Source: Parasporobacterium sp. (GTDB lineage: Bacteria; Bacillota; Clostridia; Lachnospirales; Lachnospiraceae). From it: a stretch of DNA of 57,393 bases. Shown here piece by piece: positions 1,367-45,867 of the stretch (position 1 is the first letter of the stretch; every line of letters begins with the position of its first letter). The stretch is taken from NCBI GenBank assembly GCA_017431485.1, contig JAFRKZ010000087.1, positions 1 through 57,393 on the forward strand, written 5' to 3'. Under the pieces are notes generated by a model that saw nothing but the letters and a program-made list of their open reading frames with translations, had not been told where the DNA came from and ran no database searches. A program made the translations under genes and the position numbers.

Positions 1367-4027
1367 ATGAAGGAATTAGCAAAAACCTACAATCCAAAAG
1401 AGATCGAACAGAGAATCTATGATAACTGGCTGAAGCAGAAGTATTTCCATGCTGCCTGCGATGAGAGCAAAAAGCCGTTTACCATTGTCATGCCGCCTCC
1501 GAATATTACAGGACAGCTCCATATGGGCCATGCCCTGAACAACACGCTGCAGGATATCGTGATCCGGCAGAAGAGGATGCAGGGCTATGATGCCCTGTGG
1601 CAGCCGGGGTGTGACCATGCTTCCATTGCGACAGAGGTCAAGATCATTGAAGCCCTGAAAAAAGAAGGCATTGATAAGCGCGACCTGGGACGGGAGAAAT
1701 TCCTGGAGCGGGCCTGGCAGTGGAAGGAAGAGTATGGCGGCAGGATCGTCAACCAGCTGAAAAAGCTTGGCTCTTCCGCCGACTGGGACAGGGAACGCTT
1801 CACGATGGATGAAGGCCTTTCAGATGCTGTCCTGCAGGTGTTCATCAAAATGTATGAGAAAGGCCTGATCTATAAAGGGACAAAGATCATCAACTGGTGT
1901 CCGAAATGCCTGACTACGGTCTCGGATGCGGAAGTGGAGCATAAGGATACGCCGGGACATTTCTGGCATATCAATTATCCGATCAAGGGCGAAGACCGCT
2001 GCATCGAGATCGCGACCACACGTCCTGAAACTATGCTGGGCGATACGGCGGTGGTGGTGCATCCGGACGATGAGCGGTATCAGGACCTGATCGGAAAGAC
2101 TGCGATCCTGCCGATCGTAAACCGGGAACTGCCGATCATTGCCGATACTTATATCGATCTGGAGGTCGGAACAGGCGCCATGAAGGTGACCCCGGCACAT
2201 GATCCCAATGACTTCGAGCTGGGCAAACGCTACCAGCTGGAAGAGATCTGCGTCTTTACCGACGACGGGCATATCAATGAAAACGGCGGCAAATACGAAG
2301 GCATGACGACCCTGGAATGCCGCAAGGCGATCGTCAAAGAGCTGGATGAGATGGGGCTTTTGGTGAAAGTAAAAGCCTATGAGCACAGCGTGGGCCATCA
2401 TGACCGCTGCGGCTGCATCATCGAACCCATGATCAAACAGCAATGGTTTGTGAAGATGGACGAACTGATCAAGCCGGCGATCAAAGCCGTGGACGAAGGA
2501 GAGATCCGCCTGATCCCTGCCCGTATGAACAAGCTTTACCATAACTGGACGGACAATATCAGGGACTGGTGTATTTCCAGACAGCTGTGGTGGGGACACC
2601 GGATCCCGGCATATTACTGTGAGGGCTGCGGTCATATGACGGTGGCACGGGAGTGCCCCGATGTCTGTCCGGAATGCGGCGGGACTTCCTTCCGGCAGGA
2701 TGAAGACTGCCTGGATACCTGGTTTTCTTCAGCCCTGTGGCCGTTCAGTACTCTGGGCTGGCCGGAGCAGACGCCGGAACTGAAGCATTTCTATCCGACC
2801 AATCTTCTGATCACCGGTTATGATATCATCTTCTTCTGGGTGATCCGGATGATCTTCTCCGGGTATGAGCATATGGGAGAGAAGCCTTTCGACGCCGTGC
2901 TGTTTACCGGTCTTGTCAGGGATGAACAGGGACGGAAGATGAGCAAATCTCTCGGCAACGGCATTGACCCCCTGGAGGTGATCGACAAATACGGCGCCGA
3001 TGCACTCCGGTTTACACTGGTCACCGGAAATTCTCCCGGAAATGACATGCGCTTCTCCTGGGACCGCGTGGAAGCGAACCGGAATTTTGCCAATAAGATC
3101 TGGAACGCATCCAGGTTCATTTTGATGAACCTGCCGGAAGAAGGGGTAAAGACGCCGAAACAAGAGAGCCTGCACGATGCAGATAAATGGATCCTGTCAA
3201 GGGCCAATAAACTGACCCGTGTCGTGACCGAGAACATGGACAAATATGAGATCGGCATGGCAGCAGACAGACTGTATGAATTTATCTGGGATGAGCTGTG
3301 CGACTGGTATATCGAAATGGTGAAGCCGAGACTGTACGGCGAAGACGAAGAAAGCAAGCATGCGGCTTTATATACCCTGCGTACCGTGCTGATGACTTCC
3401 CTGAAACTCCTGCATCCTTATATGCCGTTTGTTACAGAAGCGATCTACGGTTCCCTGCAGCCGCTGGCAGCAGATCTTTATCCGGAAGAGTCCATCATGA
3501 TCTCCGCCTGGCCGGTCTTCGATGAGTCGATGGATTACGAAGAAGCGGAACGAAGGACCCAGATGATCATGGAGGCGGTCAGGGGGATCCGGAATGTCCG
3601 TTCCGGCATGAATGTCCCGCTTTCCCGCAAGTCGAAAGTCTATGTCGTAGCGGAATCCGAAGAGATCCGGGAGATCTTCGAACACGGACGGGTGTTCTTT
3701 GCCACACTGGGAAAAGCCAGTGAAGTAATGATCCAAAAAAATACAGAGGGAATTGAAAAAGATGCCTTGTCAGTTCAGCTGGCTGGTGCTACTATATACA
3801 TTCCTCTGGAGGATCTTGTGGATATCGACAAGGAGATCGAGCGTCTGGAGAAAGAAAAGATCAGGCTGGAGGGCGAGCTGAAGCGTGTCGACGGCATGCT
3901 TTCCAATGAGAGATTCCTTTCCAAGGCTCCTGAAAGCAAGATCCGGGAAGAGCAGGAAAAGAAAGAAAAATATGCAGGCATGATGGCCCAGGTGGAAAGC
4001 CAGCTGGCGTCCCTCAGAAGATCCTGA
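1367..4027 (+). CDS. valS: valine--tRNA ligase
   Basis: 886 aa with the class-I HIGH-type motif PPNITGQLHMGH and KMSKS. It has a ValRS-type editing insertion and a C-terminal coiled coil. AGAGGA RBS upstream. Confidence 0.97.
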   Translation: MKELAKTYNPKEIEQRIYDNWLKQKYFHAACDESKKPFTIVMPPPNITGQLHMGHALNNTLQDIVIRQKRMQGYDALWQPGCDHASIATEVKIIEALKKEGIDKRDLGREKFLERAWQWKEEYGGRIVNQLKKLGSSADWDRERFTMDEGLSDAVLQVFIKMYEKGLIYKGTKIINWCPKCLTTVSDAEVEHKDTPGHFWHINYPIKGEDRCIEIATTRPETMLGDTAVVVHPDDERYQDLIGKTAILPIVNRELPIIADTYIDLEVGTGAMKVTPAHDPNDFELGKRYQLEEICVFTDDGHINENGGKYEGMTTLECRKAIVKELDEMGLLVKVKAYEHSVGHHDRCGCIIEPMIKQQWFVKMDELIKPAIKAVDEGEIRLIPARMNKLYHNWTDNIRDWCISRQLWWGHRIPAYYCEGCGHMTVARECPDVCPECGGTSFRQDEDCLDTWFSSALWPFSTLGWPEQTPELKHFYPTNLLITGYDIIFFWVIRMIFSGYEHMGEKPFDAVLFTGLVRDEQGRKMSKSLGNGIDPLEVIDKYGADALRFTLVTGNSPGNDMRFSWDRVEANRNFANKIWNASRFILMNLPEEGVKTPKQESLHDADKWILSRANKLTRVVTENMDKYEIGMAADRLYEFIWDELCDWYIEMVKPRLYGEDEESKHAALYTLRTVLMTSLKLLHPYMPFVTEAIYGSLQPLAADLYPEESIMISAWPVFDESMDYEEAERRTQMIMEAVRGIRNVRSGMNVPLSRKSKVYVVAESEEIREIFEHGRVFFATLGKASEVMIQKNTEGIEKDALSVQLAGATIYIPLEDLVDIDKEIERLEKEKIRLEGELKRVDGMLSNERFLSKAPESKIREEQEKKEKYAGMMAQVESQLASLRRS

Positions 4028-18007: not shown

Positions 18008-18036
18008 TTGACATGGGCATTTAATTAATATATAAT
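18008..18036 (+). promoter_or_regulatory. consensus sigma-A promoter TTGACA-17-TATAAT for the tRNA operon
   Basis: Perfect hexamers at 18008-18013 and 18031-18036, with a 17-nt spacer. Confidence 0.75.
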
Positions 18037-18699: not shown

Positions 18700-19143
18700 A
18701 AGGCTTCTTGTTTTTTTCAGTTGGCGATTTTGAGAATAGTCGGGTATCCCTGATTTCGCCTGATGCTGATTTTGAGAATAGTGGGGTATCCTCATTTTCA
18801 CCAGATACTTTTTTTGAGAATAGTGGACTATCCTTATTTTCACCAGATGTTGATTTTGAGAATAGTCAAGTATACTTAATATCGACGGATGTTGATTTTA
18901 AGAATAGTCGATTATTCTTGTTTTAACTAAATGTCGATTTTGAGAATAGTTGGGTATCCCTGTTTCATCTAAATATCGGTTTTGAGAATAGTGGACCATA
19001 CTCATTTTCACCAGATACTTTTTTTGAGAATAGTGGACCATCCTTATTATTACCAGATGTTGATTTTGAGAATAGTCAAGTATAATATCGGCTGATGCTT
19101 TTTTTGAGAATGGTCTGGTATCCTCAAAGCAACGGTGACAGGA
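18700..19143. repeat. tandem array A: 10 units of a 42-nt hairpin repeat, core TTTTGAGAATAGT
   Basis: The core starts at 18728, 18770, 18812, 18854, 18896, 18938, 18980, 19022 and 19064, each exactly 42 nt apart, then at 19102. Units 2-4 resemble units 7-9, giving a 210-nt super-repeat. Confidence 0.9.
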
Positions 19144-19168
19144 TAACACCGGATAACACACTTTTTTG

Positions 19169-19197
19169 TTGAATTTGCCTGCGTTTAATTGTATCAT
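19169..19197 (+). promoter_or_regulatory. promoter TTGAAT-17-TATCAT for rnpB
   Basis: Hexamers at 19169-19174 and 19192-19197. The P1 helix of RNase P RNA starts about 8 nt downstream. Confidence 0.55.
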
Positions 19198-19204
19198 ATA
19201 AATT

Positions 19205-19550
19205 CGAGCAGGCTGAATGGTCGCGCTGTGCGTGTGCTTGCATGCGCAGGTGAGGAAAGTCCGGGCTTCACAGGGCAGGATGCCAGATAACGTCTGGCGG
19301 GAGCGATCCCAGGACAAGTGCAACAGAAAGGATACCGCCCGCAAGGGTAAGGGTGAAATGGCAGTGTAAGAGACTACCGGTCCGACGGCAACGCCGGATG
19401 CAATGTAAACTCCATCCGAAGCAAGACCAAACAGATGGCGCTGAGGCGGCCCGCTTAGCCATCGGGTAGGTTGCGAAGAGACGGCTGGCGACAGCCGGAC
19501 AAGATAGATGACCATTTTCAATGACAGAACCCGGCTTACAGGCCTGCTCG
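19205..19550 (+). ncRNA. rnpB: RNase P RNA, bacterial type A
   Basis: P1 pairing CGAGCAGGC/GCCTGCTCG. Universal blocks GAGGAAAGTCCGGGC and ACAGAACCCGGCTTA. Type-A-like CAGGGCAGGATGCCAGATAACGTCTGG, GTGCAACAGAAAG and GGTAAGGGTGAAA. Confidence 0.93.
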
Positions 19551-19638
19551 CCTTTTCTGATCCTATCAGGAGCTTGATAAGAAGCATCGAAAGAACCGAA
19601 AGCCAGAATAAAGGGCGGCTGACACGGAGGATGTACCC

Positions 19639-38484: not shown

Positions 38485-39216
38485 ATGGTAAATGGTAAGA
38501 AAGTACTTGGCGTGATCGGGGGCATGGGTCCCATTGCGACGTCTTTTTTTATGGAACTGGTGATCAAGATGACAGATGCTTCCACGGATCAGGATCATCT
38601 GGACATGATCATTTATAATATCCCGTCCATACCTGACCGAACATCTTACATTCTGGACCATACCAAGAAAAGTCCGCTGCCGGTCATTCTTAATATCGCG
38701 GCAAAGCTGGAAGAGCAGGGAGTAGAATTTCTTGCCATGCCCTGCTGCACAGCCCACTATTTCCAGGAGGAACTGGAACAGTCCCTCCACAAACCCTTTG
38801 TGAATATCATACGGGCAACGGTTCACTATCTGAAGGAACGGGGGATCACAAAGGTCGGCGTCATGGCAACAGACGGCACCATGAATACCGGACTGTTCCG
38901 CAAGGAACTGGAAGAAAACGGCATGCAGATCGTCTGTCCCTCTAAGGAGCGGCAGAAAGACGTTATGCATGTGATCTATCAGAATGTGAAGGCAAACCGT
39001 CCGGTGGAGATGGACCGGTTCCGGGCTGTCGGCGACGAACTGAAAGCCAACGGAGCGGAGGCGATCATCCTGGGATGTACGGAGCTGTCCCTGGTGAAGC
39101 GAGACTATGATATCGGACCGGGATATATCGACGCTATGGAGGTTCTTGCCCAGCAGTCCCTGATCTCATGCGGATCTGTATTGAAAGAAGAATATAAAGA
39201 GCTGATCACAGCTTGA
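38485..39216 (+). CDS. Asp/Glu-racemase-family amino-acid racemase (aspartate-racemase-like)
   Basis: GVIGGMGPIATSFF N-terminus and both catalytic Cys motifs, MPCCTAH and LGCTE. GGAGGAGCAGGA RBS. Confidence 0.85.
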   Translation: MVNGKKVLGVIGGMGPIATSFFMELVIKMTDASTDQDHLDMIIYNIPSIPDRTSYILDHTKKSPLPVILNIAAKLEEQGVEFLAMPCCTAHYFQEELEQSLHKPFVNIIRATVHYLKERGITKVGVMATDGTMNTGLFRKELEENGMQIVCPSKERQKDVMHVIYQNVKANRPVEMDRFRAVGDELKANGAEAIILGCTELSLVKRDYDIGPGYIDAMEVLAQQSLISCGSVLKEEYKELITA

Positions 39217-39233
39217 TCGATGGAGTGATTATC

Positions 39234-40751
39234 ATGCAGTATACAAATATTTTGCAGTATCTGGAAGAAACCGTTCTGAAGGTGCCGGACAAACCGGCAT
39301 TCTGCGCACAGGACAGCACACTGACGTTCCGTCAGACTTATGAGGCGTCCCGGGCAGTCGGTTCTTTTCTGTATCAGAAGGGCTACTATAAAAAACCGGT
39401 CGTTGTCTTTATGAAAAAGACACCGGAAGCGATCGCTGCCTATCTGGGCGTGATCTATGCCGGCTGTTTTTATGTGGCGTTGGATGAAGAGATGCCGAAG
39501 CACAGGATCGAACTGATCATCCAGACCGTGAAGGCAGGTATGGTCATCTGTGATGAGACCACAGGGGAGATGATCCGGGAATACGGCTTTGACGGGGAAG
39601 TCTGTCAGTACAGCCAGATCGTTCAGACAGGGATCGATGAAGAAGCGCTTGAAAAAGTGCGTGATGCCCAGACCGATATAGATCCTATTTACGCGGTCTT
39701 TACTTCAGGTTCCACAGGAGTGCCCAAAGGAGTGCTGGCCTGCCACCGGTCTGTGATCGATTATATTGAAAACCTGTCGGAAGTGCTTCAGTTTGATTCC
39801 GATACGGTATACGGAAACCAGGCGCCGTTCTATTTTGACGCCGCATTGAAGGAGATCGTGCCCACCATGAAATTCGGCGCCACGACTCATATTATCCCGA
39901 AATCCCTGTTCATGTTCCCGATCAAGCTGGTGGAATTCCTGAATGAACATAAGATCAACACCATCTGCTGGGCGGCATCAGCCCTGACGATCGTTTCCTC
40001 TTTCCGGACGTTTGAGAAGATCCGGCCGGAATATATCAAACGTGTTGTATTCGTGGGAGAAGTCTTTCCGATCAAACAGCTGAACATGTGGAAAGAAGTC
40101 CTGCCGGATGCTCTGTATGTCAATCTTTACGGACCGACAGAGACGACAGGGGTATGCTGTTATTATAAAGTGGACCGGGAATTTGCGCTGGACGAGACCC
40201 TTCCGGTAGGAAGACCCTTCCACAATACCTCCATTCTTCTTCTGAATGATGATCTTACACAGACTCCTTTCGGTGAGGTGGGTGAGATCTGCGTAAAGGG
40301 AACCTGCCTGACGCTCGGCTATTACAACAATCCGGAGAAGACCAGGGAAGCGTTTATCCAGAACCCTCTTAACGACATGTATCCGGAGACCATCTACAGG
40401 ACAGGAGATCTGGGAAGGTACAATGAGCGGGGAGAACTGTGTTATGTTTCCCGCAAGGACTATCAGATCAAACACATGGGACACCGTATTGAACTGGGCG
40501 AGATCGAAGTCGTTGTGAATATGCATAAAGGGATCCGGACAAATTGCTGCATATTTGATGACATTAAGAAGAAAATCGTGTTATACTATGTCGGCGATGC
40601 AACGAGGGCGGAAGTGGCGGAATTCACCAAGGAAAAACTTCCCAGATATATGTTCCCGAATGTGATTGTCCAATTGGAGAATATGCCCTATACTGCTAAC
40701 GGAAAGATCGACAGAGTCTCATTGAAAAATAAATATAACGAGGAAAAATAA
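39234..40751 (+). CDS. DltA-like stand-alone amino-acid adenylation enzyme (carrier-protein ligase)
   Basis: A-domain core motifs TSGSTGVPKG, NQAPFYFDAALKE, YGPTETTG, YRTGDLG, QIKHMGHRIELGEIE and NGKIDR. Start set at ATG 39234 (GGAGTG RBS). Confidence 0.85.
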   Translation: MQYTNILQYLEETVLKVPDKPAFCAQDSTLTFRQTYEASRAVGSFLYQKGYYKKPVVVFMKKTPEAIAAYLGVIYAGCFYVALDEEMPKHRIELIIQTVKAGMVICDETTGEMIREYGFDGEVCQYSQIVQTGIDEEALEKVRDAQTDIDPIYAVFTSGSTGVPKGVLACHRSVIDYIENLSEVLQFDSDTVYGNQAPFYFDAALKEIVPTMKFGATTHIIPKSLFMFPIKLVEFLNEHKINTICWAASALTIVSSFRTFEKIRPEYIKRVVFVGEVFPIKQLNMWKEVLPDALYVNLYGPTETTGVCCYYKVDREFALDETLPVGRPFHNTSILLLNDDLTQTPFGEVGEICVKGTCLTLGYYNNPEKTREAFIQNPLNDMYPETIYRTGDLGRYNERGELCYVSRKDYQIKHMGHRIELGEIEVVVNMHKGIRTNCCIFDDIKKKIVLYYVGDATRAEVAEFTKEKLPRYMFPNVIVQLENMPYTANGKIDRVSLKNKYNEEK

Positions 40752-40979
40752 ATGGAACAGTTATTAGAAATTCTTGAAGGATTACATCCGGAAGTGGACT
40801 TCGAACTTGCAGACGACCTGATCGACGGCAAGATCTTTGATTCTTTTGATATCGTTACCCTGGTGGCAGAGATCAACGCAGAATTCGATGTGGCGATCCC
40901 GGCAGAGGAACTGATCCCTGAAAACTTTAATTCTGCTGAAGCGATCTGGGAGCTGATCCAGAGACTGGACGAAGAATAA
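40752..40979 (+). CDS. DltC-like aminoacyl carrier protein
   Basis: 75 aa with the phosphopantetheine Ser in a DltC-like context, KIFDSFDIVTLV. Its ATG follows the upstream TAA directly. Confidence 0.8.
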   Translation: MEQLLEILEGLHPEVDFELADDLIDGKIFDSFDIVTLVAEINAEFDVAIPAEELIPENFNSAEAIWELIQRLDEE

Positions 40980-40982
40980 AGA

Positions 40983-42551
40983 ATGTCCTTTACATCAATT
41001 GATTTTCTTGCATTTTTCGGTATACTGATCATCCTGTACTATGCACTGCCTAAAAAGATACAGTGGATAGTACTTCTTGTTGCCAGTTATACTTTTTATA
41101 CACTTGCAGGCCTGAAATATATAGGCTTTATTCTGTTCACCACCATCACAACCTATCTCGTGACACGGCATATGGACGAGAATCTTCAGAGACAGGATCT
41201 GTATCTGAAGAAACATAAGGCTGAGATGTCCAAGGAAGAGAAAAAGGCATATAAAAAAGAGGTGAAATCCAGGAACCGGCTGTGGTTTGTGATCACGATC
41301 GTGGTGAATTTCGGGATCCTCTTTTTCTGCAAAGCATGTCTGGTGGATCCGCTGCACAGCATGAGCGGATCACCGGTCTTTTCCTTTCTTTCGGTAGGGC
41401 TGCCTTTTGGTATTTCCTTTTATATGTTCCAGTCCATGGGATATGTGATCGATGTATACCGGGGCAAGGCACAGGCGGAACGCAATTTCTTCCGGCTGGC
41501 GCTGTTCGTGTCCTTCTTCCCGCAGCTTGTACAGGGGCCCATCAGTAAATGGGAGCAGCTCAAAGATTCCCTGTTTTCGCCGCATGCATTTGACCGCAGA
41601 CAGGTAGCGTTCGGACTCCAGAGAGTCCTGTGGGGCTTTTTCAAAAAGCTGGTGATCGCAGACCGGATCGCGGTTGCGATCGGAACGCTGAAAGGAACAG
41701 AGTATACCGGCGTTTCCTTCTTCGTGCTGACGGTGTTTTATGCCGTGCAGATCTACGGCGATTTTACCGGTGGTATCGATATTGCGATCGGCGTAGGTGA
41801 GACGCTGGGTGTTAAGATGCCTGAAAACTTCATCCGGCCGTTCTTCTCCAAGAATATCGCGGAATACTGGCGCAGATGGCATATCTCCCTGAATGAATGG
41901 ATGAAGAGCTATATCTTCTATCCGATCACGGTCTCCGGTCCCATGCTGAAGCTGGCGCTGAAGACAAGGGCAAAACTGGGCCGGTTCGGTATGCGGATCC
42001 CGGTTTATATCGGCTCTTTGCTGACCTGGCTGGGAACAGGCGTTTGGCATGGATTCAATTTCCATTTTATCCTGTGGGGACTGATCAACTGTGTGGTGAT
42101 CGTGATCTCAGAAGAACTGAATCCTGCCTATGAAAGGTTTCATGATCGCTTTTCCTGGTCAAACAAAAGGGGCTATAACGTTTTCCAGATCATCCGGATG
42201 TTTGTCCTGATGAACCTGATCAGGGCAACCGACCTGTTCAATGATGTCGGCGATTATTTCCGGCGGATCGGATCCCTTGCATGGCAGTTCAATTTCCATG
42301 TACTGTGGGACGGAACGCTGATGAACCTCGGCCTTACCGCGGCGGATTATATCATCCTGATCTGCGGCATTATCATAATGTTCCTGGTGAGCTTTTTCAG
42401 CAGGGATAACGTGAGTTTTCGGGTGAAGTTCCAGAAGGTTCCGAGAGTACTTCGCTATGTACTGCTTTTCCTTTTGCTGCTGTCCGTGATCCTGTTCGGA
42501 AGTTACGGCATCGGCTATGATGCAAGCAGTTTTATTTACAACCAGTTCTGA
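40983..42551 (+). CDS. MBOAT-family O-acyltransferase (DltB/AlgI-like)
   Basis: 522 aa, polytopic. Conserved YWRRWHISLNEWMKSYIFYP block with the MBOAT His. Confidence 0.9.
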   Translation: MSFTSIDFLAFFGILIILYYALPKKIQWIVLLVASYTFYTLAGLKYIGFILFTTITTYLVTRHMDENLQRQDLYLKKHKAEMSKEEKKAYKKEVKSRNRLWFVITIVVNFGILFFCKACLVDPLHSMSGSPVFSFLSVGLPFGISFYMFQSMGYVIDVYRGKAQAERNFFRLALFVSFFPQLVQGPISKWEQLKDSLFSPHAFDRRQVAFGLQRVLWGFFKKLVIADRIAVAIGTLKGTEYTGVSFFVLTVFYAVQIYGDFTGGIDIAIGVGETLGVKMPENFIRPFFSKNIAEYWRRWHISLNEWMKSYIFYPITVSGPMLKLALKTRAKLGRFGMRIPVYIGSLLTWLGTGVWHGFNFHFILWGLINCVVIVISEELNPAYERFHDRFSWSNKRGYNVFQIIRMFVLMNLIRATDLFNDVGDYFRRIGSLAWQFNFHVLWDGTLMNLGLTAADYIILICGIIIMFLVSFFSRDNVSFRVKFQKVPRVLRYVLLFLLLLSVILFGSYGIGYDASSFIYNQF

Positions 42552-42559
42552 TACATTTT

Positions 42560-43636
42560 ATGAAAAAGAAACTGATCCTCATTATTGTCATAACGGTATT
42601 GGCGGCAGCCGGACTTCTGTTCCTGGTGCAGGGACTTTTAATGCCCAAATTTATGTCAGAGATCCCGGAAGGTGCCATGATCCAGGAGTATTATGAAAAT
42701 GCGGGCGGCAACGATGTGATCTTTATCAGTGACTGCGAAGTGTACGAGAATTTCTCTCCCGTCACGTTGTGGGAAGAGTACGGGATCACATCCTATATCA
42801 GAGGATCTGCCCAGCAGCTGATCTGGCAGTCTTATTACCTGATGGAAGAAACCTTCAAGTATGAAACGCCGGATATCATGGTCTTCAATGTCCTGGAAAT
42901 GAAATACAACACGCCTTCCGATACCGGTGCCTCCAGCCAGCGGGAAGCATATAACCGCATGACCCTGGATGGTATGCGCTGGTCATCCAGCAAATGGAAT
43001 TCCATCTATGCCTCCATGACAAAAGAGGAGAGATCCAAAGACGGCGTATGGAGTTATATTTTCCCGATCCTGCGCTACCATGACCGCTGGTCGGAATTGT
43101 CAGGGGAAGATTTCCGATATCTGTTTACCAGAGATCAGGTGACGGACAACGGATACCTGATGCAGGTCAAGGTCAATCCCGTCGGAGATGAGTATCCGGT
43201 GATCCCGCTTGTGGATTATTCCTTTGGGGATAATGCCTACTATTATCTTGATAAGATGGTCGAACTCTGTGAGGAGCATGGAACACAGCTGGTCCTTGTC
43301 AAGGCTCCGACTCTTTCTCCGATCTGGTATGATCAGTGGGAAGAGCAGATGGAACAGTATGCTCAGGAACACGGGCTGTTGTATTTTAATTTCCTGGAAA
43401 AACAGGATGAGATCGGGATCGACTGGAATACGGATACCTATGACCAGGGTCTGCATCTGAATGTTTACGGCGCCGAAAAGCTCTCCCGTTACTTTGGAAA
43501 GATCCTTTCGGAAGAACTGGGGGTTAAGGATCACAGAGGGGAAGAAGAGACCGCCCGGAAGTGGGAACAAAAATGTGAAACTTATATGAACCGCAAAGAA
43601 AGACTTGAAAAAGAACTGACAAACATAGTAGAATGA
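42560..43636 (+). CDS. membrane-anchored SGNH-like protein (DltD-position partner)
   Basis: N-terminal TM. Block I-like VIFISDCEVYE and block V-like DTYDQGLHLNVYGAEKL. The family assignment is tentative. Confidence 0.6.
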   Translation: MKKKLILIIVITVLAAAGLLFLVQGLLMPKFMSEIPEGAMIQEYYENAGGNDVIFISDCEVYENFSPVTLWEEYGITSYIRGSAQQLIWQSYYLMEETFKYETPDIMVFNVLEMKYNTPSDTGASSQREAYNRMTLDGMRWSSSKWNSIYASMTKEERSKDGVWSYIFPILRYHDRWSELSGEDFRYLFTRDQVTDNGYLMQVKVNPVGDEYPVIPLVDYSFGDNAYYYLDKMVELCEEHGTQLVLVKAPTLSPIWYDQWEEQMEQYAQEHGLLYFNFLEKQDEIGIDWNTDTYDQGLHLNVYGAEKLSRYFGKILSEELGVKDHRGEEETARKWEQKCETYMNRKERLEKELTNIVE

Positions 43637-43691
43637 CCATTGCGGTCTGCGGACCATATAACAGTAATAGATCCTGAAGGAGAGAATTAAT

Positions 43692-44267
43692 ATGAAAAAA
43701 ATGATTTGTTTACTGATCGCAGCGGTCCTGGCAGCAGGAATGCTGACTGCCTGCGATTCAGGAGATAGCAGCGCTAAAAAAGATGACCAGGCGACTACTG
43801 TCGCTGCTGCAGCTGCAGACACGACACCGGCGGCTGATGAGACTGCACAGGCCCAGGATGCACAGACGGATCGATTTACCTTTACGTATAAAGGTACTCC
43901 GATCACCATGAAGGCTGAAGCAGCTCCGATCTGCGAAGCTCTGGGTGACGCAAAGAGCTATACAGAGGAAACAAGCTGCGCATTTGACGGCCTGGATAAG
44001 AATTACACCTTTACCAGCTTTATCATGACGACCTATCCGGATGGCGACAAGGACAGAGTCAATTCCCTGACGCTCCTGGATGATACCGTTTCTACTGCGG
44101 ACAAGATCAGTATCGGAGACTCCAAGGAAAAAGTGGAAGAAGTCTACGGAGCCGACAGTTTTAACGGTGTCAACGCCTATATCCTGACGGAAGGAGATGC
44201 ACAGCTTACCGTGATCATCGACGGCGACAAAGTATCTTCCATCCAGTATACGGCAGTGTTTGAGTAA
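43692..44267 (+). CDS. lipoprotein, function unknown
   Basis: Signal peptide with lipobox LTAC, then an Ala/Thr/Asp-rich linker and a ~130-aa domain. GGAGAG RBS. Confidence 0.7.
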   Translation: MKKMICLLIAAVLAAGMLTACDSGDSSAKKDDQATTVAAAAADTTPAADETAQAQDAQTDRFTFTYKGTPITMKAEAAPICEALGDAKSYTEETSCAFDGLDKNYTFTSFIMTTYPDGDKDRVNSLTLLDDTVSTADKISIGDSKEKVEEVYGADSFNGVNAYILTEGDAQLTVIIDGDKVSSIQYTAVFE

Positions 44268-44293
44268 ACACATTTTTCAATTACGACAAGAAG

Positions 44294-44323
44294 GCCAGCA
44301 TGCAGATGTCATGCTGGCTTTTT
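44294..44323 (+). terminator. rho-independent terminator of the envelope operon
   Basis: GCCAGCATG-loop-CATGCTGGC followed by TTTTT. Confidence 0.85.
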
Positions 44324-44603
44324 CCTTGTTTTCGCAGTGTGCTCAATTTGAGGAGGGTAGACCCTCCTTGTTTTCACGGTGAGTCTAATATGAGGAGGGT
44401 TTACCCTTCTTGTTTTCGCGGTGCGCTCAATTTGAGGAGGGTAGACCCTTCTTGTTTTTGCGGTGTGTTTAATTTGAGAAGGGTGGCCCCTTCTTGTTTT
44501 TACGATGTCCCCGATTTGAGAAGGGTGTCCCCGACTTGTTTTTGCGATGTCCCCATTTTGAGGAGGGTAGACCCTTCTTGTTTTCAAGATGAGATTAATT
44601 TAA
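44318..44603. repeat. tandem array B: 7 units of a 42-nt hairpin repeat, core TTTGAGGAGGGT..ACCCTTCTTGTTTT
   Basis: Unit starts at 44347, 44389, 44431, 44473, 44515, 44557 and 44599, all exactly 42 nt apart. Each unit is an AGGAGGGT/ACCCTCCT-type hairpin plus a T run. Confidence 0.9.
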
Positions 44604-44604
44604 G

Positions 44605-44637
44605 AAGGGTATAGGCTCGGAAAGAGCCTATACCCTT
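44605..44637 (-). terminator. 14-bp hairpin terminator of the ABC-F/PHP/hydrolase operon (also the last repeat unit)
   Basis: AAGGGTATAGGCTC-ggaaa-GAGCCTATACCCTT, 7 nt downstream of the hydrolase stop. Confidence 0.7.
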
Positions 44638-44643
44638 ATGGTT

Positions 44644-45867
44644 TTATAGTCCATCTGTGATATTTGGATCGATCTTAAATCCATCGAAATCATCGAGAGG
44701 ATGAAATTCTTCCTCCGGCGGGGTTTTCTGTGAAGCAGGGGTTGATCCTTCAGAGTCAGAAGAAGCTGAACTTTCTTCGGAACCGGCCCCGGAGATCACT
44801 GCTTCGATGTCGGCAAAGTCGATCATCTCCACCTTCGGATGGGCATCCTTGTCGATATATTCTTCCAGGTTCAGTTTTTCATCCCGGACCATTGGTCTGT
44901 CGATCTCCGGATCCACAAAATCCTCCAGGACAATGTGTTTCGGAGTGGCGGCGGCTTTTTCCGGAACGTCCGGGATCGCTGCCAGGCAGGATTCAACCTG
45001 TTCAAGGAGATCCTGCCAGATCTTTTCCCTGCAGAAATCCTGAAACAGTTCATGGCGCTGTCCCGGATAAATGATGTATCCCACATCTGTATATCCATTA
45101 TCAGAAAAGAGGTGGACTGTCTTCAGAACACCGTTTTTGCCTGCAGCACAGGAATCTTCTTCTCCCCAGAACAGACGGATGGGAAGCCCAGTGTGTTTTT
45201 TGATCCAGCTTCCTTTTGTATAGGTGCGGTTCATGAGATCCAGGATGGTCTTGAAACCGTTTATGGTATAGATATATCCGCATTTCGGGTTGATCTCATA
45301 TTTCAGGACACTGTCCCGGTCAGAAGACAGCCAGGCGAATTCGGATCCTTCCCTGGCAAATGGCCTGTAGTAAGATCCCATGATCAGATAATTGAGCAGG
45401 GAAGAACGATGATATTCCCCGCGCATAGCCATCAGCACCATCGTCAGCAGGTCAGCAGCAGGACGAAGCGGTTTGTCCGCCGGCATGCCGCAGAGAAACA
45501 GTCCGTCAATATAGTTGTCGTATTTTTTGATATAGACCGTGGCAAGAAGCGCTCCGATCCCATGTCCGAACAAAAAGCAGGGAATATGGGGAAAATGATC
45601 TTTGATATATTGCGTGATATCGTGAACGTCGCCAACCAGTCTGGAAACAGCGTTATCCCCGAAAAAACCAAGTTCTGTTTCCCGGGCAGTATTGATCCCG
45701 TGGCCTCTCAGGTCGCTGGTAACGACTGCGAAACCATGTTCCGCAAGGAAATGAGCAAATTCACGGTATCTTCCCTGATATTCGGCCATCCCGTGAAGGA
45801 TATGAAAGACTGCCCTGACTTCGCCGTCAGGCATATAAATGATCGCGTTTTTCGTTAATTCAGACAT
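44644..45867 (-). CDS. alpha/beta-hydrolase-fold protein (lysophospholipase/MGL-like) with Gly at the nucleophile position and an acidic C-terminal extension
   Basis: HGMAEYQGRY..SDLRGHG entry motifs of the Hydrolase_4 type. The elbow reads GHGIG instead of GHSxG. About 120 aa of acidic tail. Confidence 0.75.
   Translation of the reverse strand: MSELTKNAIIYMPDGEVRAVFHILHGMAEYQGRYREFAHFLAEHGFAVVTSDLRGHGINTARETELGFFGDNAVSRLVGDVHDITQYIKDHFPHIPCFLFGHGIGALLATVYIKKYDNYIDGLFLCGMPADKPLRPAADLLTMVLMAMRGEYHRSSLLNYLIMGSYYRPFAREGSEFAWLSSDRDSVLKYEINPKCGYIYTINGFKTILDLMNRTYTKGSWIKKHTGLPIRLFWGEEDSCAAGKNGVLKTVHLFSDNGYTDVGYIIYPGQRHELFQDFCREKIWQDLLEQVESCLAAIPDVPEKAAATPKHIVLEDFVDPEIDRPMVRDEKLNLEEYIDKDAHPKVEMIDFADIEAVISGAGSEESSASSDSEGSTPASQKTPPEEEFHPLDDFDGFKIDPNITDGL

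Follow-up and report, generated by a model that had tools for sequence, protein, structure and literature searches.

Tandem arrays of a terminator-like hairpin repeat dispersed among intergenic regions of Parasporobacterium

Introduction

Bacterial intergenic regions harbour several kinds of hairpin repeats and minisatellites. They include the repetitive extragenic palindromes (REP) of Enterobacteria and Pseudomonas and the bacterial interspersed mosaic elements (BIME) built from them, which are mobilized by REP-associated tyrosine transposases (RAYTs), and for which roles in transcription termination and in the stabilization of mRNA 3' ends have been proposed. Their copies number in the hundreds, carry a GTAG-type tetranucleotide at the 5' end, and occur singly, as inverted pairs (REP doublets forming hairpins, REPINs) or in alternating orientation (BIME). 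Here we describe a repeat family that belongs among such elements, and is not a new kind of system, from a contig of Parasporobacterium sp. (Lachnospiraceae; assembly GCA_017431485.1, contig JAFRKZ010000087.1, positions 1 to 57,393 of the forward strand). Its RNase P class (A), its gene content and its database matches assign this DNA to Parasporobacterium of the ruminant gut. We refer to this whole stretch, all 57,393 nucleotides (nt) of it, as 'the window'. It contains two arrays of a 42-nt unit: 'array B', our principal subject, in the region 44325-44640, where a lipoprotein gene and a hydrolase gene converge, and its sister, 'array A', at 18729-19100.

The units of these arrays are like REP and BIME in that they are short imperfect palindromes (~35-40 nt), intergenic, often near the 3' ends of genes, clustered, confined to a lineage and conserved as hairpins. 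They differ in being joined head to tail at an exact 42-nt period, in forming tens of arrays, and in having a Firmicute host. REP/BIME membership itself was rejected, on a 5' motif that is TTTGAG rather than GTAG and on the exclusively head-to-tail order, with neither solo nor inverted copies in 230 kb of sequence. Neisseria intergenic mosaic elements (NIME) likewise form strain-variable intergenic arrays, of modules bounded by short inverted repeats with hairpins between modules. NIME units are heterogeneous and 50-150 bp long, and their dRS3 is a 20-bp motif that is also an integration site for phages or IS110-type elements; our modules, in contrast, are a uniform 42 nt and have a T-tract. 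The mycobacterial interspersed repetitive units (MIRU) and the Staphylococcus aureus repeats (STAR) resemble our family in another way: they are direct tandem repeats, present at many intergenic loci, polymorphic in number and homogenized within loci. Repeats of this sort are ~40-100 bp long. MIRU have small open reading frames (ORFs) that overlap the flanking genes and are not terminator hairpins, and STAR is a GC-rich direct motif, recurring every ~40 nt, without a conserved hairpin and T-tract. Here, by comparison, every unit is a hairpin followed by a U-tract.

Intrinsic (Rho-independent) terminators offer a further likeness, though one that not all units and loci share: a G+C-rich stem of 6-8 bp, a tetraloop, UUGUUUU, a position 3' of genes and, mostly, the same orientation as those genes. 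Natural tandem terminators usually consist of two unrelated hairpins, whereas these arrays have 3-10 homologous copies, of one sequence over 15 loci, some of them in non-terminator contexts, and their stems (about -11 kcal/mol) are weaker than those of the real terminators that flank them (-20 to -26 kcal/mol). A regular period, and a conserved palindromic part of ~28 nt beside a variable one, also recall clustered regularly interspaced short palindromic repeats (CRISPR). CRISPR have identical repeats, unique spacers of ~26-72 nt and, usually, cas genes. We rejected this identity: the variable part here is 14 nt long, its copies within one array being related (55-93% identity), the loci are many and lie behind terminators, and the neighbouring genes contain no cas domains. 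Lastly, a Type III toxin-antitoxin system, cptIN, has been described in a member of the Lachnospiraceae. Antitoxin arrays of this type (ToxI, CptI and TenpI) are tandem direct repeats of ~36-45 nt (PMC3401426). Our arrays differ in occupying many loci per genome, in forming simple hairpins with T-tracts rather than pseudoknots, and in having no ToxN/CptN/TenpN-like gene after them; what lies downstream (a convergent hydrolase, rnpB, secA, EamA, GntR and others) includes no toxin gene, and this identity, too, was rejected.

We read the arrays as a dispersed, lineage-specific hairpin minisatellite, that is, a variable number of tandem repeats (VNTR) with terminator-like units, which probably persists and spreads mainly as selfish or near-neutral DNA and is predicted to form a back-up terminator stack when transcribed. 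For this reading, taken as a whole, we consider the chances about even. The family is previously undescribed and lineage-specific, shared within a narrow clade that comprises a rumen/gut Parasporobacterium species and its close relatives; a literature search on intergenic tandem hairpin or terminator repeats, on 42-bp repeats and on Parasporobacterium found no description of it.

The repeat unit and its hairpin

Array B is a tandem repeat with a period of 42 nt. Tandem Repeats Finder (TRF) places it at 44325-44591, with 6.4 copies, 79% matches and 0% indels, and reports higher-order periods of 84 and 126 nt; a direct-repeat finder gives five start-to-start spacings, each of 42. Six full units occupy 44347-44598 on the + strand and start at 44347, 44389, 44431, 44473, 44515 and 44557. 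An earlier note on this DNA had named these starts and this step, on which TRF, the direct-repeat finder and a register listing agree, and had counted seven units. Six are complete; the 'seventh', at 44599, is only a 12-nt 5' half-unit (TTTAAGAAGGGT, 44599-44610, +), an end of the same type as in all 15 arrays examined. At its other edge, according to the register listing and edge analysis, the array begins with a 3' half-unit (CTTGTTTT plus the tail CGCAGTGTGCTCAA, 44325-44346, +) that has no 5' arm: the match there is 4/12 in the 5' part and 11/14 in the 3' part. A degenerate unit pattern, TTTGAGNANNGTNGACNNTNCTTNTTTTCAC, allowed up to three mismatches, finds 10 matches in the 57-kb window where 0.00 are expected, all of them in arrays A and B. 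The intergenic region with array B is identical across eight independently assembled metagenome contigs, and so the array is not an assembly artefact.

Each unit has the same plan: TTTGAG, an 8-bp stem (positions 4-11 paired with 16-23), a 4-nt loop, TTGTTTT, and a variable tail of 14 nt. Positions 1-12 (TTTGAG and the 5' arm) and 15-28 (the 3' arm and TTGTTTT) are conserved. Positions 13-14, at the centre of the loop, are free and the least conserved of the whole unit (0.17 and 0.08 bits), and positions 29-42, the tail, are array-specific. Units of array B have an identity of 0.91 in the core and 0.55 in the remainder; comparison of independent arrays gives 0.84 and 0.44. The stem of unit 1 is GGAGGG/CCCTCC and that of unit 4 is GAAGGG/CCCTTC; units 2, 3 and 6 contain a G.T pair, all as the earlier note had it, and the stem of unit 5 is broken. 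The hairpins of units 1-6 have predicted energies of -13.6, -11.5, -10.7, -11.1, -5.9 and -10.7 kcal/mol.

Across the family, the stem is paired in 91.8% of cells, against 55-79% in slid registers, and its covariation score is equalled by none of 500 shuffles, which bears out the suggestion that the hairpin is conserved. At pair 9-18 there are 76 units with GC and 14 with UA, and at pair 10-17 there are 68 with GC and 13 with AU. A U-A variant of pair 7-20 is found in three units of locus L035, the orthologue of which, L058, has mostly G-C there. RNAalifold alone retains only pairs 8-19, 9-18 and 10-17, the register being unchanged. There are two stem types. The consensus sequences of arrays A and B match at 25/42 positions (~24 had been claimed), and their arms covary, GAGAATAGT/ACTATTCTT in array A corresponding to GAGGAGGGT/ACCCTCCTT in array B. 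The A-type lineage comprises array A of the window, L068 and L103, and L068 contains hybrid units in which a B-type 5' arm is joined to an A-type 3' arm. The strand that carries the T-tract has 97 G.T pairs compared with 31 A.C pairs, and it folds more stably than its complement (-161.4 for + versus -132.3 kcal/mol for -). The earlier argument, that a G-T pair is tolerated only as plus-strand RNA, is a modest one, because 66 of the 97 G.T pairs come from one fixed terminal pair.

Members and distribution of the family

The 28-nt core is common to 15 distinct loci, orthologues counted once, each with its own 14-nt tail: A/L103, B/L147, L025/L077, L032, L035/L058, L029/L038, L039+L044, L042, L047, L068, L075, L116, L122, L126 and L149. 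A locus may hold as few as 1 full unit or as many as 10. The step from the start of one unit to that of the next is exactly 42 nt in 87 of 88 cases; the few indels are in edge units. The earlier note was therefore right to treat arrays A and B as one repeat family, and further members with constant phasing, the absence of which it had set as a refuting test, do exist. Two of its inferences fared less well. The register is kept, but selection for exact phasing is not supported, because unequal recombination in register, observed here (below), by default leaves the period unchanged. Nor is seeding from intrinsic terminators, which it also proposed, supported: since the same core and period recur in all of them, they are better regarded as dispersed copies that landed beside terminators than as local outgrowths.

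A genome scan found arrays at three loci (L025, L032 and L035) of the metagenome-assembled genome (MAG) Parasporobacterium sp. RGIG5915 and one array in Clostridiales bacterium SIG387 (L029); the remaining matches were chance ones or coding repeats of no relation to the family. In the metagenomes, a scan with a pattern of one unit, presupposing no spacing, returned 116 loci. All of the real arrays among these are on one assembly, R26 (15 contigs, 14 loci), which represents the window's own species: L147 is 98.0% identical to the window over 11.7 kb, and L103 97.6% over 7.8 kb. With a covariance model built from 94 distinct units, real units score 31-61 bits (42.9-53.4 in array B), and the other metagenome matches, ~100 of them outside R26, score at most 27 bits and were dismissed as chance. 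In 230 kb the model found arrays only and no solo units; nor, in the same 230 kb, were there inverted copies, every unit having the same orientation. Two-unit and single-unit patterns found only single chance-like matches in viral contigs, and hence no link to phages. No Rfam 15 family reaches its gathering score over the arrays (the best sub-threshold match has 28 bits, the gathering score being 52), and the window as a whole gives only tRNAs and RNase P.

Seven contigs or contig sets end inside an array (L004, L010, L039/L044, L103, L116, L158 and L163), and one array appears to be divided between contigs L039 and L044. The same species has a second repeat family, 'E' (TGCAACGAATTGGCGGGTATGCATG-like), with direct and inverted copies ~41-42 nt apart. 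It is found at L039:4300-4520, at L042:9612-9735 and in L047 (locus coordinates 3126-3185). In L042 and L047 it lies directly past the right end of a 42-nt hairpin array, and in L039 it forms a cluster of its own after the end of a gene; in the window it was not found.

Array edges

At the left, 9 of 14 arrays match the 3' part of a unit (at least 11/14 positions) and not the 5' part, the means being 9.1/14 in the 3' part and 4.3/12 in the 5' part. At the right, in all 15 arrays, the last unit matches in its 5' part (mean 11.5/12) and then diverges (4.9/14). Arrays thus start with a 3' arm and finish with a 5' arm, which defines a module running from loop to loop with 9-nt inverted ends. L032 and L047 each end in a unit that forms a perfect palindrome of 26 bp (12+2+12), TTTGAGGAGGGT-NN-ACCCTCCTCAAA; in array B the last arm is prolonged into a 14-bp hairpin. 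Several right flanks open with a GCAG.AAATG-like sequence. As a separate observation, array A terminates in a near-palindromic unit (TTTGAGAATGGTCTGGTATCCTCAAA).

The prolonged hairpin of array B is a perfect inverted repeat of 14 bp at 44605-44637 (AAGGGT...ACCCTT), 6 nt from the stop codon of the hydrolase gene and identical in strain L147. It had been taken for the terminator of that gene. The hairpin is there, with folding energies of -26.0 (+) and -24.5 (-) kcal/mol. Its role is uncertain, because the T-tract is on the + strand (ATGGTTTTAT, against CTTAAATTAAT on the - strand), and the terminator scan is positive on the + strand only.

Strain variation and evolution

Ten contigs that encode an identical lipoprotein yielded one shared sequence and no strain variation; this we obtained instead from contigs reached through the 75-aa dltC-like protein, which is conserved, and from those of R26. 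In the strain comparison, array B counts seven units in the window and eight in L147, a difference of one 42-nt indel between flanks that are 98.1% and 96.4% identical. The two strains differ at 4.0% of 4-fold degenerate sites, at 7.1% of positions in the array core, and at 32.3% in the loop and tail. Unit 2 of the window has the head of unit 2 and the tail of unit 4 of L147; it is an in-register chimera, the product of in-register recombination. L158 has the array type of L147, and L163 is a third strain type. These comparisons show that the arrays change 42 nt at a time, through slippage or through unequal recombination in register, and that the number and order of units vary by strain. Among the other orthologous arrays, flanks are 96.1% identical in L025/L077 and 88.7% in L035/L058.

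Over 39213-45867, the window is 99.6% identical to L147 in the dltA-like protein, 100% in the 75-aa protein, 99.4% in the membrane-bound O-acyltransferase (MBOAT) and 98.5% in the 358-aa dltD-like protein; nearest the array, identity is 94.7% in the lipoprotein and 96.4% in the hydrolase. Such a drop may mark a tract of recombination, or a local rise in diversity, with the lipoprotein gene and the array at its centre. More distant relatives, with hydrolases 57-65% identical, have the same gene order but no array at the orthologous site, which in L154, L156 and L157 has only one or two terminators; these relatives are too diverged for insertion boundaries to be set there. L153, with a hydrolase 58% identical, has a different hairpin repeat in this spacer (GCCGAAAAAATGCAGCAATGCGTGAGATTTTCGGCA, several copies, L153:5609-6078; TRF period 31, 3.2 copies), and the same intergenic region contains an additional 23-nt repeat in ~2 copies. 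The convergent lipoprotein/hydrolase spacer has been colonized independently by different repeats. Since distant relatives have terminators or another repeat at the site, array B is young and species-specific.

Genomic context

The arrays usually begin directly past the terminator of the upstream gene, and array B follows that of the lipoprotein gene, as first noted. The T-tract strand reads in the direction of the gene or tRNA operon upstream of it at 10 of 13 independent loci. The neighbours are unrelated housekeeping functions: HPF to secA; pyruvate:ferredoxin oxidoreductase to GntR; a SpoU methylase; a cyclase and an ABC exporter; YkuD and a peptidoglycan-binding protein; EamA; and serine dehydratase. 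No neighbouring gene is conserved across loci, and no array neighbour gives a PADLOC match to defence systems. Among the genes scanned around the 15 loci (the window, and ~8-14 kb around each array) there is no transposase or recombinase. Local GC skew mostly tracks the coding strand, and about half of the loci have a positive value, the others a negative one; judged by this measure, array orientation follows no consistent pattern relative to replication.

On the + strand of the window, array B is preceded by a dlt-like operon that encodes an AMP-binding protein, a 75-aa carrier protein, an MBOAT and a 358-aa protein. The 75-aa ORF has a weak PP-binding match, found only in relatives' precomputed gene calls. 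The last gene after this operon (43692-44267, +) is an ORF for a lipoprotein of 191 aa, with a signal peptide and a lipobox (MKKMICLLIAAVLAAGMLTAC; LTAC) and no Pfam match. Its intrinsic terminator (44289-44323, +) has 14 pairs followed by TTTTT, and was identified by the terminator scan and as an inverted repeat (-20.2 kcal/mol). Beyond the array is the convergent alpha/beta hydrolase gene (Hydrolase_4; 44644-45867, -), assigned by Pfam and orthologues and the first of the - strand genes, with a PHP protein and an ABC-F ATPase. In some of the contigs with the identical lipoprotein (L001:3292-4860 and L002/L162:488-2067) the dltB-like MBOAT is called as two pieces, of 128 or 141 and 375 or 371 aa, in place of 522 aa; a frameshift or stop variant may lie behind this, or else an error of sequencing.

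Array A (18729-19100, +) has ~9 A-type units with GAGAATAGT / ACTATYCTT arms, found by TRF, the unit pattern and the covariance model. It lies between the terminator of a tRNA operon (-24.6 kcal/mol) and the putative rnpB promoter, and its hairpins have mostly weak stems (mean -3.9 kcal/mol). The operon comprises six tRNA genes (Pro, Gly, Arg, His, Gln and Lys), driven by a perfect sigma-70-like promoter (TTGACA, 17 nt, TATAAT; 18008-18036). After the array come a 10-nt direct repeat, GGATAACACC, in two copies (TRF 19141-19159), a promoter-like site immediately 3' of it (19169-19197), and the gene for class A RNase P RNA (19205-19554).

What the arrays might do, and how they might have spread

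Each B-type unit would be a weak Rho-independent terminator, with a stem of about -11 kcal/mol and then UUGUUUU. An RNA polymerase that passed a gene's own terminator would meet 3 to 10 further terminators or 3'-end hairpins, and the array would act as a fail-safe terminator or insulator in one direction only. Such a role is plausible from the make-up of the B-type units, which have stems of -10.7 to -13.6 kcal/mol (-5.9 in unit 5) followed by UUGUUUU(U/C); a simple terminator scan is positive for 2/6 units of array B, on the + strand only. Even so, the host probably has no dedicated, copy-number-tuned use for the arrays. In how it persists and spreads, the family probably behaves for the most part as selfish or near-neutral repeat DNA, and the arrays, we propose, are tolerated because terminator-like units are harmless in 3' intergenic regions.

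A number of observations sit uneasily with this account. The hairpins of array A (mean -3.9 kcal/mol) are too weak to terminate, yet they are kept in two strains, and little read-through may reach the arrays at all, because the terminators that precede them are strong (-20 to -26 kcal/mol). Three of the 13 loci do not suit a terminator: L032 is antisense, with a - strand gene on either side, and L042 and L126 come after the starts of divergent genes. The covariation amounts to only two or three independent events (the A-type lineage, and pair 7-20 in L035), and conservation of the core could reflect the needs of an enzymatic process, or recent common descent, rather than termination. Slippage alone does not explain dispersal to at least 15 loci, and the loop-centred boundaries, together with the perfect 26-bp palindromes, hint at an enzyme-mediated process.

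These last points lead to a different account, that the arrays are built of a mobile module akin to those of REP or NIME: 40 nt from loop to loop (ACCCTCCTT-GTTTT-tail-TTT-GAGGAGGGT), with 9-nt inverted ends, separated from the neighbouring module by a variable dinucleotide, and copied or inserted by an enzyme that acts on hairpins or palindromes. The enzyme might be an HUH/Y1 transposase (RAYT or IS200-like), a serine recombinase acting on the 12+2+12 palindrome, which resembles hix and gix sites, or SbcCD, by loop cleavage followed by repair; the hairpin would be kept as its substrate, and likeness to a terminator would be incidental, or camouflage. The presence of one core at 15 loci with array-specific tails implies dispersal followed by local amplification, as this account would have it. 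The left edges keep the 3' part and the right edges the 5' part, so that both fall in the loop, where positions 13-14 are the least conserved. L032 and L047 end in perfect palindromes and array A in a near-palindrome; right flanks share GCAG.AAATG-like sequence, as if the flank had been co-transferred; and the invariant stem bases A5, G6, A8, T19 and C21 exceed what pairing needs. Edge-unit decay, however, could also give loop-centred edges. No transposase or recombinase gene adjoins any of the 15 loci, there are in 230 kb none of the solo units or inverted pairs typical of REP/REPIN, there is no GTAG-type motif, and no pair of empty and filled sites was found within the species. On balance we regard a mobile module as rather unlikely. 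A stronger form of the idea, which we think more unlikely still, sees in the arrays the trace left in Clostridia by a hairpin-directed DNA process so far undescribed, a Firmicute counterpart of REP/RAYT with a new head-to-tail architecture. The module would be copied or inserted beside terminator hairpins, by a Y1/HUH transposase, by a serine recombinase, or through loop cleavage and fold-back repair. Were it so, arrays would grow directionally, the 3'-arm edge being left decayed and the opposite, 5'-arm edge sharp, at times as a perfect 26-bp palindrome. Family E (~41-42 nt), which shares the genome, might draw on this machinery too.

The remaining accounts look to what the array might bind or encode. 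Because 42 bp make 4.0 helical turns at 10.5 bp/turn, dimers of a protein bound to the palindrome GAGGAGGGT-NN-ACCCTCCTT would lie on one face of the helix, and the nucleoprotein filament might serve as a roadblock, a boundary or a nucleoid anchor. The strict 42-bp spacing (87/88 steps) would suit such a platform, as would stem positions conserved in sequence beyond pairing, and either orientation relative to neighbouring genes occurs (3 of 13 loci). But A-type arrays change three stem pairs compensatorily, whereby the hairpin survives and a protein site specific in sequence would be lost. The palindrome is also asymmetric: G.T is confined to one strand and the T-tract to one side, with TTTGAG on the other side. 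In-register recombination would be expected to hold the period constant even in the absence of selection, and no candidate protein is known. A binding platform is, accordingly, very unlikely. The arrays might instead yield a functional RNA: a mimic of the Shine-Dalgarno (SD) sequence, a sponge for ribosomes or proteins, an array processed into small RNAs, or a repeat RNA like the Type III antitoxins, with which they share tandem repeats in the range of ~36-45 nt (ToxI/CptI; PMC3401426). The greater folding stability of the + strand and the presence of AGGAGG in B-type units might seem to recommend this. AGGAGG, said by the earlier note to be in each unit of array B, is in units 1, 2, 3 and 6 only, and units 4 and 5 and the half-unit have AGAAGG; family-wide, 64/102 units carry it, 38/102 lack it, A-type units among them, and where present it is buried in the stem, so that the proposed SD mimic did not hold up. 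The tails are related within each array and thus do not resemble guides or spacers. No toxin-like or conserved gene lies 3' of the arrays, their neighbourhoods give no PADLOC match and the arrays no Rfam match, and array B is preceded not by a promoter but by a strong terminator. We consider a functional RNA highly improbable.

Least credible of all, to the point that we set it aside, is a protein with a 14-residue repeat (LRRVxPSCF), which would make a gene of the 104-aa entry at 44300-44614 (+) in the ORF list. Forty-two nucleotides are 14 codons, and this is why long frames stay open across arrays: the frame is open or nearly so (0-1 stops) in 9/17 tabulated arrays, gene callers annotate 90 aa in L004/L160, and there is a 103-aa ORF in the intergenic region of L153, in a different repeat. 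In the other 8/17 arrays (winA, L035, L039, L042, L044, L058, L068 and L126) there are 2 to 6 stops, which excludes a coding array there. Variation is that of a hairpin, with covarying arms and a free loop and tail, not that of codons; the 104-aa ORF starts inside the upstream terminator and is spurious; and array A lies between tRNA genes and rnpB. A DNA uptake sequence was also considered and rejected: within the 57-kb window, TTTGAGGAGGGT (up to one mismatch) and GAGGAGGGT are confined to array B.

Implications

The repeat families made of terminator-like hairpins gain a Firmicute example. If nothing beyond the reading we favour is true, namely a terminator-like minisatellite that is mostly selfish or near-neutral, then bacteria have one more lineage-specific repeat family. 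There are practical consequences. Loci that bear arrays break short-read assemblies, and the family may be under-represented in MAGs. The arrays yield false ORF calls (90-104 aa), and in MAGs of rumen and gut Lachnospiraceae they could be mis-called as CRISPR. Strain-level variation in the units provides usable VNTR markers with which to follow strains of an uncultured Parasporobacterium. The natural series that the loci compose, of 1 to 10 units, two stem types and both orientations, is suited to the study of stacked weak terminators, and the loop-centred boundaries raise a testable question, that of how modules spread to new terminator-proximal sites.

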